Assembly (NCBI GenBank): GCA_034679225.1
Contig: JAXDBC010000076.1
Location: forward strand, 19,941-83,940
Length of the DNA: 64,000 bases
DNA from: Bacteroidales bacterium
GTDB taxonomy: Bacteria > Bacteroidota > Bacteroidia > Bacteroidales > VadinHA17
Direction of reading: 5' to 3'
Numbering within the stretch: the first letter of the stretch is position 1; every line of letters starts with the position of its first letter. Under the pieces are notes generated by a model. The model saw only the letters and a list, made by a program, of their open reading frames with translations, was not told where the DNA came from and did no database searches. This document shows positions 513 to 64,000 of this stretch, in pieces. The position numbers and the translations under genes were made by a program.

Positions 513-560
513 GTCTTGCGGTCTTGCGGTCTTGCGGTCTTGCGGTCTTGCGGTCTTGCA
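513..560. repeat. Tandem octamer array, 6 units of GTCTTGCR
   Basis: Read directly: GTCTTGCG x5 then GTCTTGCA. It starts 4 nt after the fcl stop codon. Confidence 0.95.
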
Positions 561-605
561 AGTTGTGCGCTCGTGGAAGTTGTGAGGTTGCAGTCCATCA
601 ACCAT

Positions 606-965
606 TTATTTGCGGGGTTTGAGGTATTTCATGAGAACGCTGATGCTATTGATCAGGTTTTGGCATTTTTCTCTTCGTAAAAGAGCTGTCTCAGAGATAA
701 CATAGGATTGGTCCTCTGCGATATAATACATGTTCTTGACTTCACCAGAAGATCCCTTGGAAATATTTAGAAAATTACGGAATTCAGCATCACTATTTCT
801 GCAAAAACCTTCAGAAATATTGTTCATTATAGAAATCCCAGCACTTATAACCTGATTCCTAAAAGCAAAATCTTCACAATTTCTAAAATCAGTATAAATC
901 AGATTAACCAACTCCCTGGACATCTTCCAGATATCCAAGTCTTCAAAATTTTTTATTGTTGCCAT
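606..965 (-). CDS. Four-helix-bundle protein, 23S rRNA intervening-sequence / Avd-like family
   Basis: MATIKNFEDLDIWKMSRELV...ISEGFCRNSDAEFRNFLNISKGSSGEVKN is the typical signature of this family. The ATG at 965 is preferred over the upstream ATG at 989. Confidence 0.85.
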   Translation of the reverse strand: MATIKNFEDLDIWKMSRELVNLIYTDFRNCEDFAFRNQVISAGISIMNNISEGFCRNSDAEFRNFLNISKGSSGEVKNMYYIAEDQSYVISETALLRREKCQNLINSISVLMKYLKPRK

Positions 966-1045
966 TTTGCAGCTTTTAATGTAAGACATATTTATCCACC
1001 ACTAAAATAGCAATTATTCACCACAATTCTTCAGGATTTTCTGTC

Positions 1046-1176
1046 CGCACGACCGCACGACCGCAGGACTGCAGGACTGCAAGACTGCAAGACTGCAGGA
1101 CCGCAGGACCGCAAGACCGCAGGACTGCAAGACAACGACCGAAGGGAGTAAGACCGCGACCGAAGGGAGCCAGACC
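1046..1176. repeat. Tandem octamer array, 11 units of YGCAVGAC, followed by 2 copies of a ~20-nt unit CGACCGAAGGGAGnnAGACC
   Basis: Read directly. The units run CGCACGAC x2, CGCAGGAC, TGCAGGAC, TGCAAGAC x2, TGCAGGAC, CGCAGGAC, CGCAAGAC, CGCAGGAC, TGCAAGAC. This is the reverse complement orientation of the 513-560 array. Confidence 0.95.
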
Positions 1177-5794: not shown

Positions 5795-5832
5795 GGAAAA
5801 AGGTGGAAAGGATACAAGATGTGAAGAAGATG

Positions 5833-6014
5833 AATGGGAGAATGGGAGACGGAGAGACCGCAAGACTGCAAGACTGCAAGACTGCAAGACACACTGCAGG
5901 ACAAAACGAAGGTTGCATCGGATGAATCCCCTCCTCGGAGGGGTGGGGGTGGGTTCTTGCACAGAGCACAGGGCAAAAGAACGGCATGCGGCTCGCGGCG
6001 TGCGGTAAGCGGCG
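5833..6014. repeat. Mosaic intergenic repeat element between divergent ileS and the rhodanese gene
   Basis: In order: AATGGGAG x2, ACGGAGAG, octamers CGCAAGAC/TGCAAGAC x4 plus TGCAGGAC, the conserved module GTTGCATCGGATGAATCCCCTCCTCGGAGGGGTGGGGGTGGGTTCTTG, CACAGAG/CACAGGG, and GAACGGCATGCGGCTCGCGGCGTGCGGTAAGCGGCG (GCGGYnn 7-nt periodicity). Confidence 0.95.
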
Positions 6015-6097
6015 AATTAACAGGCATTTTTGCCTTGTGAGAAATGTAAATTATAATAAAAGAAGAAAATCCTTTTCTTTGTATAAAAACAGATAGA

Positions 6098-8530: not shown

Positions 8531-8643
8531 GTTATGAAACCTGCATGTATCAAATGCACAAATACATATTTATATGATTCTCGGTTATTTGGCTTCCCCC
8601 GCTTGAGCGGGGCAGGTCTAATAGTATTAAAATCAAATAAATT
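8531..8643 (+). repeat. Gene-proximal conserved element, copy 1 of 3 (E1)
   Basis: It shares ATGAAACCYRCATGTAT...CACAAAYA...TTCCCCCGCTTGAGCGGGG with 27688-27794 and 44219-44326. The hairpin is CCCCGC (8597-8602) TTGA GCGGGG (8607-8612). An embedded ORF at 8534-8647 gives 37 aa. Confidence 0.9.
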
Positions 8644-11353: not shown

Positions 11354-11719
11354 GTCCTTCGGTCTTGCAGTCTTGCAGTCTTGCGGTCTTGCAGTCTTGC
11401 GGTCCTGCGGTCTTGCGGTCCTGCGGTCTCTTCCTATGTATTTAGCTATCAGAAATGAGACCCGGAATATGTTATAACAATGTTATAACAGATCGGTATG
11501 CGCTCTAAGTCAAAACCCACCCCCTAACCCCCCATTCCCTTGTCTCCCCGTCTCCCCGTCTCTTCGTCTTTCGCCGCGTGCTGCACGCCGCTAGCCGCAT
11601 GCCGTTCTTCCCCCTGTGCTTTACCCCCATCCCGTCCCGATAGCTATCGGGAGCTTTCGGGATGGGGAGTAAAACTTCTGGGAGTAAAACTTCTGGGAGT
11701 AAAACTTTGGGAGTAAAAC
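11354..11719. repeat. Large mosaic intergenic repeat element (inverted relative to the 63589-63989 copy)
   Basis: In order:
- 9 octamers GTCYTGCR (11354-11425)
- anchor GTCTCTTCCTATGTATTTAGCTATCAG (11426-11452)
- 2x the palindrome GTTATAAC (11471-78, 11482-89)
- AACCCACCCCC
- CCCGTCTC x2
- the inverted GAACGGCATGCGGC module
- a nested perfect hairpin (11625-11667)
- a 15-mer GGGAGTAAAACTTCT x3.7 (11665-11719). Confidence 0.95.
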
Positions 11720-11818
11720 AAAAAGGAGATAAACCATCTTTCGCGAGTTCTGAAAGTTTTCTGCCAAGGATTAAAATTTCGTAATTTTAGGCTTTGATTT
11801 AATCTCAATATACTCCTT

Positions 11819-19753: not shown

Positions 19754-19836
19754 CTGACAGCTAAATACATAGGAAGAGACCGCAGGACCGCAGGACCGCA
19801 AGACTGCAAGACCGCAGGACCGCAGGACCGCAAAGT
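19754..19836. repeat. Anchor module plus octamer array
   Basis: CTGACAGCTAAATACATAGGAAGAGAC (19754-19780) is followed by CGCAGGAC x2, CGCAAGAC, TGCAAGAC, CGCAGGAC x2, CGCAAAGT. Confidence 0.95.
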
Positions 19837-27687: not shown

Positions 27688-27794
27688 TGGATGAAACCCA
27701 CATGTATTTCATACACAAACATTTATGTATATAATTATCAAACATGTGCGGTTCCCCCGCTTGAGCGGGGACCATTAAAATAAATTATATTCGG
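27688..27794 (+). repeat. Gene-proximal conserved element, copy 2 of 3 (E2)
   Basis: Hairpin CCCCGC (27755-60) TTGA GCGGGG (27765-70). Positions 27751-27795 are identical to 44281-44325 (45 nt). The embedded ORF at 27691-27783 gives 30 aa. The element abuts the ATG of the T9SS protein gene. Confidence 0.9.
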
Positions 27795-29867
27795 ATGAAA
27801 AGAATTATATTAGTTATATCTCTTACGCTTGTGCCATATTTGCTGCTGTCGCAGGTTTCGCTTGTCATTGAAGGCACGACCACAAACAACACCGTCACGG
27901 GTAACTGGGAGGGAGTGAACATCCCGAGAGACCTAAAGACCTCGCTTATATACAGGAATAACCAGGTAACTTCAGTGAATGCTTCGGGATATCTGCTGCA
28001 GTCGGGCGATGAAGTGCCCAGGACTACCAACAACAACCTCGATGGAGGCGTTATCACCGGCAACAAGCTGATTTGGAACGGCAGCGACGCTTCGTCTAAA
28101 ACTCACGGGATGTTTATGGGATACAACATCAATTTTAGTGTGAAATACAACTACCTCGACAAGACTCCCTATGGCATTCTTTTCAAATCGGGATCGGATG
28201 CAGGTACAAACATGACATACTCAACGGGTTACGGCGCTTCGTACAACATTGTCAAAAACTCGAAGATGTCGGTAAGGATGAAGGGCATAAATGGAGTCCA
28301 GGTGTATAACAATACATTTTATTCAAGCCTTCAGTCGGGGACGCTTATATACATAGATGCCAACAACGACAGGCCTGTCCCGGCCCCTTCAACAGGTGCA
28401 AAGATCAAGAACAATATTTTCTATACCGTTTATCAGATTCCCAATATAAGCATTGAAAGCAGGTGTCTTTCCGGTTTTGAAAGCGATTACAATGTTTTCT
28501 ATTGTGAATCGGGTACGCCTGTTTTTTCGGTCGATGGTTCAAGGAAAACCTTTGAACAATGGCAGGCTATGGGATACGACCGGCATTCGGTGGTAATAAA
28601 TCCTAAATTCAAGAATACGACAGACTTTGTACCATCAGCCAGGCTCGATTACGGCACCGACCTTGGACAGGCATGGTCGACCGGTTTATCGACCGGCGCG
28701 GTATGGAGTGCAGGGCAAACTCCAGCTACCACAAGCCAGAACGGCAAATGGCAGGTCGGGGCAATACTTTATGCAGCTGCTCCGGAACCCGCTCCAGCGC
28801 CTGCTCCTGCACCAACACCTGCGCCAACTCCAACACCAACTCCAACACCAACTCCAACACCAACACCAACTCCAACACCAACTCCAACACCGGCCCCGGT
28901 AAACCAGGCTCCGGTAATAGTGATAAATTACTCATCCGAAAATTTGTCGGGTTTCGTGGGTGAGATCGATGCAAGTGCAAGTTACGATGCCAACAAGGAT
29001 AAACTGAGTTTCTCGTGGCAAGTCCCTTCTTATATCTCAGTATCATCTTCTTCAGGCTCAAAGATCAGGTATCTCAGTCCGGTGGTTACCGAAGCTCAGA
29101 CAGTGGAATTCATACTGAAGGTAAGCGACGGCAAGATAAGCCAGTCGAAGGCCATTCCCGTGAAAATCTTTCCATACAAGCCCGAGTTGAAATCGGCAGA
29201 GGTAATCAAAATAGAAGCAAGCGGGTTTCAGGCTCCTAATTATCCATACAACATAATTGACGGCAATATAGGAACCATGTGGTCGGCTGTCGGTGAGGAG
29301 CAGTGGGTTGTGATGGAACTCAAAGAAGCATTCAGTATTCAGCATGTCAGGATCGCGTTTAAGCCCGGACAAAAAGCCGAGGCATATTTTGATGTGCTGG
29401 GATCGAATGACAAGGTGAACTGGGAGCCTGTTCTGACCAAAACAGCCTCATGCGGTTTCTCAGGCGATCTTCATGTTTTCGACTTTCCGGAAGCAAAATC
29501 GCAGGTCGGATACAAGTACATAAAACTTGTCGGCCATGCCAACTCCTCGGATAACTGGAATTATATTTCCGAATTCAGGGTTTTCGGGTACAGGTATATC
29601 AGTGACGCCAGTTTTGAGAAACAAGCTGTTAAACTTTATCCCAATCCTGCCAGGGAATTAATAAAGGTGCGTATCGATGACGAAACATTCAATCCCGAGT
29701 TTGTCAGGATTGTCAGTATGACAGGAAAAGTGGTATATGAAGAAAAAATGAATCCCGGCCTCAAGGATTTTCAGATCCCTGTCAGTTTCAAGGGAGGCAC
29801 TTATATTGTCCAGTTCGGATCAGGCGACATTACTCTCGGTTACCAGATGCTTGTTGTAAACAGCTGA
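27795..29867 (+). CDS. T9SS-sorted surface protein: beta-helix region, Pro/Thr linker, Ig-like and F5/8 type C (discoidin) domains
   Basis: Signal peptide, APEPAPAPAPAPTPAPTPTPTP... linker, discoidin-like block (IDGNIGTMWSA...), and a C-terminal KLYPNPARELIKVRI... Por/T9SS sorting domain. Confidence 0.8.
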   Translation: MKRIILVISLTLVPYLLLSQVSLVIEGTTTNNTVTGNWEGVNIPRDLKTSLIYRNNQVTSVNASGYLLQSGDEVPRTTNNNLDGGVITGNKLIWNGSDASSKTHGMFMGYNINFSVKYNYLDKTPYGILFKSGSDAGTNMTYSTGYGASYNIVKNSKMSVRMKGINGVQVYNNTFYSSLQSGTLIYIDANNDRPVPAPSTGAKIKNNIFYTVYQIPNISIESRCLSGFESDYNVFYCESGTPVFSVDGSRKTFEQWQAMGYDRHSVVINPKFKNTTDFVPSARLDYGTDLGQAWSTGLSTGAVWSAGQTPATTSQNGKWQVGAILYAAAPEPAPAPAPAPTPAPTPTPTPTPTPTPTPTPTPTPTPAPVNQAPVIVINYSSENLSGFVGEIDASASYDANKDKLSFSWQVPSYISVSSSSGSKIRYLSPVVTEAQTVEFILKVSDGKISQSKAIPVKIFPYKPELKSAEVIKIEASGFQAPNYPYNIIDGNIGTMWSAVGEEQWVVMELKEAFSIQHVRIAFKPGQKAEAYFDVLGSNDKVNWEPVLTKTASCGFSGDLHVFDFPEAKSQVGYKYIKLVGHANSSDNWNYISEFRVFGYRYISDASFEKQAVKLYPNPARELIKVRIDDETFNPEFVRIVSMTGKVVYEEKMNPGLKDFQIPVSFKGGTYIVQFGSGDITLGYQMLVVNS

Positions 29868-30644: not shown

Positions 30645-30684
30645 CGCACGACTGCACGACTGCACGACCGCACGACCGCACGAC
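30645..30684. repeat. Tandem octamer array, 5 units YGCACGAC
   Basis: CGCACGAC, TGCACGAC x2, CGCACGAC x2, read directly 22 nt after the stop codon. Confidence 0.95.
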
Positions 30685-30986: not shown

Positions 30987-31061
30987 TGGGTTGTACTGGA
31001 TTCGAACCAGTGACCCCTACCCTGTCAAGGTAATGCTCTAAACCAACTGAGCTAACAACCC
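30987..31061 (-). tRNA. tRNA-Val (anticodon GAC)
   Basis: The minus strand reads GGGTTGTTAGCTCAGTTGGTTTAGAGCATTACCTTGACAGGGTAGGGGTCACTGGTTCGAATCCAGTACAACCCA. Manual cloverleaf: 7-bp acceptor stem, anticodon loop TTGACAG, T-loop TTCGAAT, CCA not encoded. Confidence 0.9.
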
Positions 31062-44218: not shown

Positions 44219-44326
44219 TTCATGAAACCCACATGTATCAAATACACAAACACGTGTGAATATAATTTTCAAATATGTGGGTTCCCCCGCTTGAGCGGGG
44301 ACCATTAAAATAAATTATATTCGGAG
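44219..44326 (+). repeat. Gene-proximal conserved element, copy 3 of 3 (E3)
   Basis: Hairpin CCCCGC (44285-90) TTGA GCGGGG (44295-300). A 9-bp long-range stem pairs AACCCACAT (44226-34) with ATGTGGGTT (44275-83). The embedded ORF at 44222-44308 gives 28 aa. Confidence 0.9.
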
Positions 44327-48004: not shown

Positions 48005-48222
48005 GACAGGGCACAGGGCGCAGGGCACAGGGCACAGGGCACAGGGCACAGGGCACAGGGCGCAGGGCACAGGGCACAGGGCACAGAGCACAGGGACTAA
48101 GAGACAGTACGACTGCAAGACGCAGTACAGGACGACGCGAAGGTTGTTTCGAATGGATCCCCTCCACTGGAGGGGTGGGGGTGGGTTCTGGTAGAGCGAG
48201 AGTGAGGAAGAAAAGCACAGGG
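48005..48222. repeat. Heptamer array (13 x CRCAGGG) plus mosaic modules
   Basis: 48005-48095 holds 13 phased 7-mers. These are followed by degenerate octamers (GACTGCAAGACGCAGTACAGGAC), the module GGTTGTTTCGAATGGATCCCCTCCACTGGAGGGGTGGGGGTGGGTTCTGG, GTAGAGCGAGAGTGAGGAAG, and a terminal CACAGGG. Confidence 0.95.
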
Positions 48223-57638: not shown

Positions 57639-57735
57639 GTCTTGCTCCCTTCGGTCGCTGTCTTGCGGTCTTGCAGTCTTGCGGTCCCTGACTGCGAACT
57701 TTGAACCGTTTGCCGCTTGCCGCGCGCCGTTTTAA
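57639..57735. repeat. Mosaic repeat: inverted CGACCGAAGGGAG module, GTCTTGCR octamers, GC-rich GCCGCTTGCCGCGCGCCG module
   Basis: GTCTTGCT-CCCTTCGGTCG-CT-GTCTTGCG-GTCTTGCA-GTCTTGCG-GTCCCTGA..., i.e. the reverse complement of the arrangement at 1118-1160. Confidence 0.95.
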
Positions 57736-63588: not shown

Positions 63589-63989
63589 CTCAGGGCATAA
63601 GGCACAGGGCACAGAGCACAGGGCACAGGGCTCAGGGCGCAGGGCACAGGGCGCAGTGACAGGTCGTGCAAGTCTTGCAGGTCATGCAAGTCTTGCAGGT
63701 CGTGCTAATTGTACAAGACCTGCAAGACAGCAAGACACACTGCAAGACAAAGCGAAAGTTGCATCGGATGGATCCCTTTCTCCGGAGTGGGGGTGGGTTC
63801 TTGTAGAGCGAGAGTGAGGGAGAGAAGCAAGCCTTTTAGATATTCGGAACCATGTTATAACATTGTTATAACGTGTTTCGGGCTTTATTTCTGACAGCTA
63901 AACACATAGGAAGAGACCGCAGGACAATGTATTATGTATTATGTATTATAGGCGATGTATTATAGGCGATGTATTATAGGCGATGTATA
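63589..63989. repeat. Large mosaic intergenic repeat element running to the window end
   Basis: In order:
- 11 heptamers CNCAGGG (63589-63658)
- an 18-mer CAGGTCRTGCAAGTCTTG x2.5
- a 12-bp perfect hairpin (63690-63701 / 63717-63728)
- CAAGAC units
- the GTTGCATCGGATGGATCC...GGGGGTGGGTTCTTG module
- GTAGAGCGAGAGTGAGGGAG
- 2x GTTATAAC (63854-61, 63865-72)
- the anchor CTGACAGCTAAACACATAGGAAGAGAC (63891-63917)
- one CGCAGGAC
- ATGTATT x3 and a 14-mer ATAGGCGATGTATT x3 (63927-63989). Confidence 0.95.
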
Positions 63990-64000
63990 AACAATTAGCA

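Follow-up and report, generated by a model that had tools for sequence, protein, structure and literature searches.

The cassette between fcl and UpxY

The window analysed here is a 64-kb stretch of a Bacteroidales genome (assembly GCA_034679225.1, contig JAXDBC010000076.1, positions 19,941 to 83,940), and the subject of this report is a small gene near its left end, which encodes a four-helix-bundle protein of the PF05635 family and lies between two arrays of tandem octamers that face in opposite directions. On one side is a fragment of fcl (GDP-fucose synthase) on the + strand, ending at 509, and on the other a gene for an UpxY-family antiterminator (NF033644, 157 bits) on the minus strand, ending at 1178. 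The gene together with its arrays, referred to below as the cassette, occupies the whole 668-nt gap between both stop codons and has the following parts:

513..560: 3'-side array, six octamers GTCTTGCR on the + strand (YGCAAGAC on the gene sense strand), abutting the fcl stop codon at 507-509
561..605, minus: degenerate continuation of the 3' array up to the gene stop codon (Tandem Repeats Finder row 549-584)
606..965, minus: PF05635 / TIGR02436 four-helix-bundle gene, 119 aa
966..1045, minus: spacer separating the start codon from the 5' array, with leader and promoter-like sequence
1046..1133: 5'-side array, eleven octamers YGCAVGAC on the + strand (GTCBTGCR on the sense strand)
1134..1176: module capping the outer end of the 5' array, present as two 21-nt copies of ..GACCGAAGGGAG(T/C)(A/C)AGAC and followed by the UpxY stop at 1178 (Tandem Repeats Finder row 1127-1176)

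Read on the + strand, the left array (513-560) is five copies of GTCTTGCG followed by GTCTTGCA, that is six exact octamers of the form GTCTTGCR, and the right array (1046-1133) is eleven octamers of the form YGCAVGAC. An earlier note on this DNA had described these two inverted arrays and had placed a 119-aa four-helix-bundle gene alone inside them, filling the gap between UpxY and fcl; the sequence and a repeat scan confirmed the arrays, and the open reading frame (ORF) at 606-965 on the minus strand is the sole PF05635-type ORF in the window. In the repeat scan of the window, the arms 513-560 and 1086-1133 were recovered as reverse complements of 48 nt with 90% complementarity, and the 16-mer double unit YGCRVGACYGCRVGAC was counted 36 times, compared with 0.01 expected from dinucleotide-preserving shuffles. 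About five decayed octamers follow the left array at 561-595 (GACTGCAA, CCTCACAA, CTTCCACG, AGCGCACA and ACTTGCAA on the sense strand) and leave at most 13 nt before the stop codon; the 3' array of most related loci begins 0-12 nt past the stop. An alternative upstream ATG at 989 gives a 127-aa product and is the start used by public gene calls, while an exact-sequence look-up of the 119-aa product returned no match, the public call being the 127-aa version.

Public data contain 16 contigs that encode the 127-aa protein (one from GCA_964549755.1), and ten of them, from the same species as the window, were read. The neighbouring genes and the orientation are identical in all ten contigs, and both arrays are kept in each of them, with copy numbers of 10 or 11 units for the 5' array and 4, 6 or 7 units for the 3' array; the end module is present in one or two copies in other strains of the species. 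The arrays are therefore real and stably kept, with lengths that change by slippage.

The window protein matches PF05635 with an E-value of 1.2e-25 (90.2 bits, cut-off 33.8) and TIGR02436 with 88.7 bits (cut-off 24), and since both scores exceed the curated cut-offs, it belongs to the S23p family, or '23S rRNA intervening sequence protein', named after the intervening sequences (IVSs) of rRNA. The predicted monomer structure has four helices, with a predicted local distance difference test score of 92.6. Its template-modelling (TM) scores are 0.85 to Xcc0516 (2gsc), to which a profile match was also obtained (E 1e-14), 0.77-0.79 to BT_0352 (2rld) and 0.75-0.77 to Avd of Bordetella phage (4dwl/8ub7), in agreement with the Avd-like fold proposed in the earlier note. 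The crystal entries of solved homologues contain five chains each, and S23p homologues have been described as homopentamers (PMC4990558). The median isoelectric point (pI) is 8.9, the protein is strongly conserved (mean column identity 75%), and a single-sequence search with one query gave 7,046 clusters at 50% identity.

Several other assignments were considered and rejected. The window protein has no PADLOC match, its PHROG matches are weak and to groups without an assigned function, and no relative was found in IMG/VR contigs, so that neither a defence-system gene nor a phage gene is indicated. Rfam identified no rRNA in the window, and a known RNA family was rejected because a tRNA is the only Rfam match there.

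Inverted arrays flank PF05635 genes in Bacteroidales

Relatives of the gene were collected by a scan of one genome per species, which gave 205, and the best 80 loci were fetched; they come from uncultured Bacteroidales at 62-85% protein identity and were chosen for carrying the gene. Nearly all of the 80 loci have one array upstream of the start codon and another right after the stop codon, as detected by Tandem Repeats Finder. Under strict criteria, arrays are present on both sides at 62 of 79 loci, and at 61 of these 62 the two arrays have the same period (7, 8 or 9 nt), compared with about 47% for mismatched loci. The upstream unit is the reverse complement of the downstream unit, with at most one mismatch, at 38 of the 62 loci vs 18% for mismatched loci, and the flank-to-flank duplex energy is better than that of both mismatched loci (p 1.4e-5) and same-sense controls (p 7e-11). 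The units vary between loci (GTCTTGCG, GTCRTGCAR, AATCRTGC, GTCTGAAG, GTCTTCTG and ATTATGCG), each being paired with its own complement, and among 17 pairs of cassettes from the same genome, 13 differ in unit length and two agree within one mismatch. Both arms of a cassette share unit length and sequence, and the unit differs between cassettes, even within one genome.

For the converse census, a profile built from diverse members of the family was run on six-frame ORFs of the loci, with contig-end ORFs excluded. It identified 84 full-length PF05635 ORFs; arrays flank 71 of them on both sides and 12 on one side, and a single ORF has none. The check on systematic flanking by inverted arrays that the earlier note had suggested is thus positive in Bacteroidales, and it is also positive in other phyla, as described below.

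In one recurrent setting, the cassette lies between two tandem paralogous genes of about 1,000-1,100 aa that by eye look like transporters of the resistance-nodulation-division type (L043, 1646-4975; also L022, L029, L034, L035, L037, L060, L062 and L083). In settings of the L043 type, the upstream ORF runs into the 9-mer array and thereby acquires a repetitive tail (..AGRASRASRASRASHASRAG..).

A blind scan of array pairs recovers the gene

All pairs of arrays with reverse-complementary units were also collected with genes ignored, and the null was obtained by shuffling the units among arrays. Inverted pairs 300-800 nt apart numbered 58 vs 3.6 expected (maximum 9 in 300 permutations), a 16-fold enrichment, whereas direct pairs at 300-800 nt were not enriched (7 vs 4.0). 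The spacing peaks at 400-500 nt, a range that holds 46 of 69 pairs.

Ten pairs more than 300 nt apart lack the query gene, and each of them encloses a PF05635 gene, intact or broken. Eight hold other PF05635 ORFs, seven of which are divergent (units GTTGCTG, GGTGCAG, CAGGTTG, ATCGTTTA, TAGTGAT, GACTCAC and AAGATAA) and one a close second copy (unit TGCAAGTCG); of the other two, one holds a 50-aa PF05635 fragment and the other a PF05635 gene split by a GIY-YIG ORF.

The split gene (L016, 2670-3459) lies in a heptamer hairpin of GTTGCTG and CAGCAAC, its halves corresponding to profile positions 2-53 and 53-121. The ORF between them encodes a GIY-YIG nuclease of 106 aa, and the arrangement looks like one selfish gene nested in another.

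The same design in other phyla and in cas loci

The PF05635 genes found by tblastn in a plasmid collection were mainly cyanobacterial, and twelve of them were inspected. Complementary flanks of period 7 or 8, with none of 300 shuffles as good, are present in eight of the twelve, from Nostoc, Trichormus, Aulosira, Picosynechococcus, Leptolyngbya and Azospirillum. In Nostoc, Trichormus and Aulosira, about five heptamers of the form (G/A)TCAG(G/A)A precede the ATG and complementary units stand directly at the stop codon; Nostoc edaphicum has (GTAGGGA)8 upstream and (TCCCTAC)5 downstream, the units of Picosynechococcus and Leptolyngbya are GGAGATA-like, and that of Azospirillum, GACRGAN, is almost the unit of Coxiella discussed below. 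The array-flanked design thus recurs in three phyla. The association between the gene and inverted arrays is systematic, crosses phyla and predicts new cases.

Several of the plasmid genes are located within operons, namely cas10/cmr3, cas6/cas4 and conjugation operons, and one lies antisense between two ribonucleotide reductase genes. Hairpin-flanked cassettes stand between adjacent cas genes in Picosynechococcus (L092, cas10-cmr3) and in Anabaena sp. 90 (L095, cas6-cas4). An earlier survey recorded these genes inside cas loci without remarking on the repeats (PMC3936711), and the published 'associations' between 23S_rRNA_IVP and CRISPR-cas may reflect cassette insertions rather than a cas-related function.

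Empty sites, filled sites and orientation

The clearest view of an insertion comes from a conjugative-plasmid operon of Nostoc, which exists in versions with and without the gene. In the empty sites (...TTCTAG GTT ATGCAA...), 3 nt separate the two host ORFs. The filled site reads ...TTCTAG [ATCAGGA GTCAGGA GTCAGAA GTCAGGA GTCAGAA CAA ATG ... on the left and ... CTCCTGA CTTCTGG ATTCTGA] TT ATGCAA... on the right. The insert of about 419 bp is made of exactly the arrays and the ORF, and the arrays are missing from the empty site. Without the surrounding genes, the same segment was found again in unrelated operons of Aulosira, Trichormus and Scytonema, where its nucleotide identity is 82-84%. In Nostoc the arrays arrive with the gene at cassette insertion.

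For the site occupied by the window cassette, loci were compared through UpxY homologues of 75-82% identity. In four relatives, UpxY and fcl are convergent and 44-220 nt apart with no PF05635 gene between them, and these represent empty sites; in a fifth, the site is filled by the gene in the opposite orientation. No empty sites were found among the 80 Bacteroidales loci, which had been picked for gene presence. One empty UpxY-fcl site (L108, 2190-2296) contains a gene-less octamer-array hairpin (GTTGTACG GTTATCTG.. / ..ATTGCATAATTGCACAACTGCATAAC) with a loop of about 40 nt, possibly a decayed cassette or a landing site.

Cassette genes that are about 85% identical can differ in context, being located beside ileS or between UpxY and fcl, and the Bacteroidales cassette neighbours identified by Pfam include housekeeping genes, ileS and dnaG among them. 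In at least three contexts (UpxY/fcl, the genes for a 261-aa and a 492-aa protein, and neighbour clusters 10/11), the cassette was seen in either orientation with unchanged neighbours, the flipped copies being found between genomes only, at a gene identity of about 84-87%. The cassette is present or absent at orthologous sites and lies in either orientation between the same neighbours, its moves, losses and flips in Bacteroidales are occasional, and the arrays belong to it as terminal inverted repeats. The mobile or recombining cassette envisaged in the earlier note, together with its proposed comparison of filled and empty sites, is in this respect supported by the Nostoc plasmids and by the UpxY-fcl relatives.

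On one metagenomic contig, P0143 (Joint Genome Institute (JGI) 3300075153, gene list), two PF05635 genes are located at most 2 kb apart, one at ileS/dksA and the other at UpxY/fcl, the latter in the orientation opposite to that of the window copy.

Internal organization of the cassette

The 5' array of Bacteroidales cassettes stops 30-90 nt ahead of the ATG, and a strict box TAnnTTT[AG] is found in 47 of 78 upstream spacers vs 7 of 78 downstream controls, 46 of 52 hits starting 30-50 nt before the ATG. This box resembles TAnnTTTG, the -7 promoter element of Bacteroides. The window box TATTTTAG at 1002-1009 (minus strand) is one base off the strict form, with its 5' end 44 nt and its 3' end 37 nt before the ATG. 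The cassette carries a promoter-like box of its own. Directly ahead of the ATG, the relatives have a conserved leader with the consensus TTTAAATCGTGCTAAAATG, which the window leader TTAAAAGCTGCAAAATG resembles without matching it. The cyanobacterial 5' array, rich in purines and with GGAG motifs, reaches directly to the ATG, so that the ribosome-binding region would be sequestered if this array paired with the 3' array.

When the region 505-1180 was folded as RNA, the arrays closed the structure on both strands, giving a terminal stem like that of an IVS. The fold of the + strand, which is antisense to the gene, contains an uninterrupted 48-bp helix (z -8.2), and that of the gene strand contains a helix with mismatches (z -5.5).

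Gene-less arrays

The window contains further arrays that enclose no gene:

5859..5890: four units of the same octamer family, upstream of ileS and part of a mosaic intergenic repeat
11362..11425: eight units of the same octamer family, 12 nt past the dnaG stop
19781..19828: six units of the same octamer family, with its flank 90% complementary to 11373-11452
30645..30684: five units of a CGCACGAC variant, 22 nt past a stop codon
57660..57683: three units, preceded by the end module of the cassette
63660..63736: inverted pair, (GTCNTGCAR)5, 8-nt loop, (YTGCAAGAC)~3, a cassette-type hairpin without a gene

The octamer arrays of the window are modules of larger mosaic intergenic repeats. The 21-nt end module of the cassette was found again at 57639-57687, beside the gene-less array. 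The array at 5859-5890, upstream of ileS, was compared as a possible relic with the cassettes beside ileS in L019, L047 and L074, but their contexts are not orthologous. Outside cassettes, Bacteroidales genomes carry 0.28 short tandem arrays per kb with many unit types, many of them as close inverted pairs with loops of 6-120 nt. About 10% of the gene-less arrays match the unit of the local cassette vs 3% for units of other genomes. The earlier note had suggested, as one of two possibilities, that the gene-less loci are solo relics of the cassette. As a general statement this is unjustified, since the arrays are diverse and only about 10% share the local unit; some, however, may be cassette relics, such as the L108 hairpin and the array with the shared end module.

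A second repeat family in the window consists of heptamers, (ACAGGGC) in about 13 copies at 48006-48095 and (CAGGGCA) in about nine copies at 63591-63656, with no cognate gene in the window. Inverted triple ACAGGGC units 420-450 nt apart were not found in either arrangement in JGI metagenome contigs, where this very strict pattern was searched for and the species is possibly absent.

Comparison with known systems

The closest known system is the ORF-carrying IVS of 23S rRNA, found in Leptospira, Coxiella burnetii, Brucella and Xanthomonas, and not the diversity-generating retroelement (DGR); the earlier note had not considered the IVS, and it had likewise overlooked the promoter-like box. In Coxiella, the IVS is 428-444 nt long and located at helix 45, its S23p ORF lies in the loop of a stem formed by a 28-bp inverted repeat, the stem was shown experimentally to be cut by RNase III, and the ATG is preceded by two to three tandem heptamers GACAGAT in strain-variable number; the IVS was discussed by the same authors as a selfish and possibly once-mobile element (PMC4990558). 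The cassettes share with this system the S23p / PF05635 family, the location of the ORF in the loop of a terminal-inverted-repeat stem, the size (about 419 bp for the Nostoc insert) and, in Azospirillum, a unit (GACRGAN) that is nearly that of Coxiella. They differ in that the window cassette lies between the protein genes fcl and UpxY rather than in 23S rRNA (helix 9, 25 or 45), which is the defining location of an IVS, in that its arms are arrays of 6 and 11 octamers instead of a unique 28-bp repeat, and in its own promoter-like box. RNase III excision has been demonstrated for the IVS, whereas for the window cassette it is suggested by analogy.

Other systems resemble the cassette in part. 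In REPIN-RAYT systems (repetitive extragenic palindromic (REP) doublets and REP-associated tyrosine transposases), a single-copy gene is flanked by inverted short repeats that are also scattered in intergenic DNA, paralogues within one genome pair with different repeat families, and inheritance is largely vertical with conserved positions. The window gene is likewise flanked by an inverted repeat that is also dispersed (five arrays and one inverted pair), but it encodes a helical bundle of 119 aa with PF05635 as its sole Pfam match and no HUH/Y1 (IS200-like) transposase, the cassette repeats are tandem 7-9-mers rather than REP hairpin doublets, and only about 10% of nearby gene-less arrays share the cassette unit. 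The foldback (FB) transposons of eukaryotes have terminal inverted repeats built from tandem short units with variable arms, and copies exist both with a coding loop and as bare hairpins, to which the gene-less inverted array pairs described here are parallel; as FB elements are eukaryotic and larger and encode unrelated proteins, the likeness is one of design alone. Cyanobacterial cassettes are flanked by heptamer arrays and in this resemble the short tandemly repeated repetitive (STRR) heptamers of cyanobacteria and the G-rich heptamers of Xanthomonas and Nostoc, which are intergenic tandem 7-mers with no assigned function. Intergenic heptamer arrays of Xanthomonas and Nostoc have been catalogued genome-wide without a link to PF05635, including 70-75 convergent pairs in Xanthomonas (PMC4692102). 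Apart from the Coxiella IVS heptamers, no paper was found that links PF05635 or 'four helix bundle protein' to flanking tandem arrays outside rRNA, in a literature search that mostly did not cover subscription journals.

Avd shares the four-helix-bundle fold and belongs to the same superfamily; it is a pentamer that was resolved in a ribonucleoprotein with RNA and reverse transcriptase (PDB 8ub7). The two proteins have a sequence identity of only 5-9%, and the window protein scores below the bAvd model. No reverse transcriptase (RVT Pfam families) is encoded within 10 kb on either side of the window gene, and no pair of template and variable repeats was detected by the repeat scan of the window, which found only tandem arrays and mosaic repeats near the gene.

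Interpretation and alternative explanations

In our best reading, the window element is a free-standing counterpart of the ORF-carrying IVS of 23S rRNA, arranged in the order array, promoter and leader, ORF and inverted array, and it behaves as an old, occasionally mobile insertion unit. We consider it reasonably probable that the arrays of this IVS-type cassette serve as terminal inverted repeats whose arms pair, which would underlie both their likeness and the flipping, and that RNA read through the cassette forms a stem for RNase III. The arms would be kept alike by mutual hairpin pairing in single-stranded DNA or RNA, together with slippage and gene conversion, or alternatively by selection for a stem, and recombination between the arms could flip the cassette. 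A transcript crossing the whole cassette would fold so that a stem of about 48 bp closes around the ORF, and RNase III, as in the rRNA IVS, would cut this stem and free the cassette RNA from the host RNA. Such detachment would explain why the element is tolerated between genes, in operons and in rRNA. It may further be speculated that the protein, a mildly basic pentamer, binds specifically to the unit repeated in its cassette and, since it has no catalytic domain, that host functions would carry out breakage and joining.

A number of observations weigh against this IVS-type interpretation. Because the promoter-like box sits on the ORF side of the 5' array, an mRNA made from it would begin inward of that array and include the 3' array alone, and the stem would therefore be possible only in read-through RNA or in DNA. 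The mismatches between the arms show no consistent G-U bias (the sense strand is better at 40 loci and the antisense strand at 34, p 0.88), and with neither strand favoured throughout, there is no support for an RNA stem under selection and the comparative data do not distinguish pairing of RNA from that of DNA. The Nostoc junctions, which represent one insertion, show no clear target duplication and at most a 2-nt ambiguity (AT), and no transposase or recombinase families were found within 10 kb of the window gene; the only ORF of the element being the 119-aa bundle, it also lacks the transposase expected of an insertion sequence or its miniature inverted-repeat derivatives. Bacteroidales cassettes are mostly vertically inherited: genes with at least 90% nucleotide identity always share their context among the 80 loci, and the ten same-species contigs have one orientation. 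Complementary flanks were not found in three of the twelve plasmid genes (from Pseudanabaena, Calothrix and Gemmatirosa), and those of Anabaena sp. 90 are marginal (p about 0.06). Finally, the strong conservation of the protein suggests a cellular function, which is left unnamed by the cassette model.

Among the alternatives, the most probable, though we regard it as rather doubtful, is that the pentamer is a putative sequence-specific binder of its own unit in DNA or RNA, with the arrays as operator or maintenance sites and the gene-less arrays as further targets, in a relation comparable to that of a RAYT transposase to its REPIN repeats. The action of the protein in trans on the arrays, which the earlier note had offered as its second possibility, is thus a plausible candidate role. 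It would fit the individual unit of each cassette, including the 13 of 17 same-genome pairs that differ in unit length, the approximately threefold excess of gene-less arrays matching the local unit (10% vs 3%), the end module common to a cassette and a gene-less array, the median pI of 8.9 and the presence of the related Avd in a ribonucleoprotein with RNA and reverse transcriptase (PDB 8ub7). The commonest array, of 4.4 units, contains five GTC cores, which could be set beside the five chains of the protein, but we regard this as numerology, the lower end of the length distribution being shaped by the score threshold of Tandem Repeats Finder. About 90% of the gene-less arrays near a cassette, however, have unrelated units, the co-variation of unit and protein is equally expected from co-inheritance, and binding leaves both the inversion of the arrays and their tight bracketing of the ORF unexplained; the heptamer-family census, a weak test, gave no cognate cassette either. 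It is also quite unlikely that the cassette is an invertible switch, in which the arrays are recombination sites and a flip alters the expression of the gene or its neighbours. The long and nearly identical arms would suit such a switch, as would the two orientations in which the cassette lies, with unchanged neighbours, in at least three contexts, but with the box inside the segment a flip would not turn the gene off, no recombinase gene is found within 10 kb, the ten same-species contigs show one orientation where a switch should show two, and flips are seen only between genomes that are about 84-87% identical in the cassette gene, which is the pace of occasional homologous recombination.

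Two further explanations are contradicted by the data. Slippage might fill intergenic DNA with arrays, in which case the gene would merely sit in repeat-rich spacers; arrays are indeed abundant and diverse (0.28 per kb outside cassettes), at least seven of the octamer family occur in the 64-kb window, and the heptamer arrays and convergent pairs of Xanthomonas and Nostoc were described without a link to the gene (PMC4692102). Such coincidence is nevertheless very improbable, as it is at odds with the 16-fold enrichment of inverted but not direct pairs at 300-800 nt in the blind scan, with the PF05635 gene enclosed by all ten extra pairs, with units and periods that match within a cassette and differ between cassettes, with the recurrence of the pattern in three phyla and with the Nostoc sites, where the empty version has no arrays and the arrays come with the gene. 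Least likely of all, to a degree that makes it hardly credible, is that the gene is a true Avd and its arrays part of a DGR. Although the proteins share a fold superfamily (TM 0.75-0.77) and a divergent paralogue weakly matches an Avd PHROG and the bAvd Pfam model, the window protein itself matches PF05635 and not bAvd, has no PADLOC match and no relatives on viral contigs, and the locus lacks the hallmarks of a retroelement, namely a reverse transcriptase within 10 kb and a template/variable repeat pair in the window.

Other repeats of the window

Mosaic intergenic modules are located at 5824-6016, 11430-11735, 48105-48217 and 63720-63990, in a layout that resembles mosaics of the REP or bacterial interspersed mosaic element type. 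They include three copies of a unit of about 74 nt (CTGCAAGAC..GAAGGTTGCATCGGATGAATCCCC..GGGGTGGGGGTGGGTTCTTG), three copies of the module CTGACAGCTAAAYACATAGGAAGAGAC adjoining arrays, a GTTATAAC-containing palindrome at 11465-11495 and 63845-63875, and the further small tandem repeats GAATGGGA, GTCTCCCC, GGGAGTAAAACTTCT and ATGTATTATAGGCG.

An element of about 79-120 nt that ends in the hairpin TTCCCCCGCTTGAGCGGGGA occurs three times (8534-8612, 27691-27769 and 44222-44300, the latter two extending to 27811 and 44341). Each copy lies about 30-65 nt upstream of a + strand ORF (8644, 27795 and 44365), and although Rfam has no match to it, the element could be a shared leader or regulatory RNA. 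The CACCAA and 30-nt repeats at 28770-28901 are coding and lie inside the ORF 27795-29867, where they specify an Ala-Pro / Thr-Pro linker (..APAPAPAPTPAPTPTPTPTPTPTPTP..). The tRNA gene of the window is located at 30987-31061 on the minus strand (Rfam RF00005, 66 bits), about 300 nt downstream of the CGCACGAC array.

Implications for the PF05635 family

PF05635 proteins occur in many copies in many phyla and have had no function assigned to them since their discovery in rRNA IVSs in the 1990s. The present analysis indicates that a fixed genetic design holds for them outside rRNA, in operons and even in CRISPR-cas loci, with the gene as the cargo of a hairpin-ended cassette. In all cases examined here, a PF05635 gene was correctly predicted by inverted arrays of 7-9-mers with a spacing of 400-500 nt, which can serve as an annotation rule, and this rule has a wide reach because the family is very large.

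A more general possibility, which we put forward tentatively, is that PF05635 proteins are dedicated partners of short tandem-repeat hairpins across bacteria, recognising the units and helping to maintain or spread them. Equally tentative is the scope of such a family, in which the cassettes, the gene-less arrays and hairpins of Bacteroidales, the heptamers of cyanobacteria and Xanthomonas and the 23S rRNA IVS might all be members of one family of elements. If true, this would amount to a prokaryotic 'foldback' element, with a relation between protein and repeat like that of RAYT and REPIN but without a transposase. Independently of this reading, the 7-, 8- and 9-mer arrays of Bacteroidales and cyanobacteria, and possibly those of Xanthomonas, gain from the present results a testable link to one protein.

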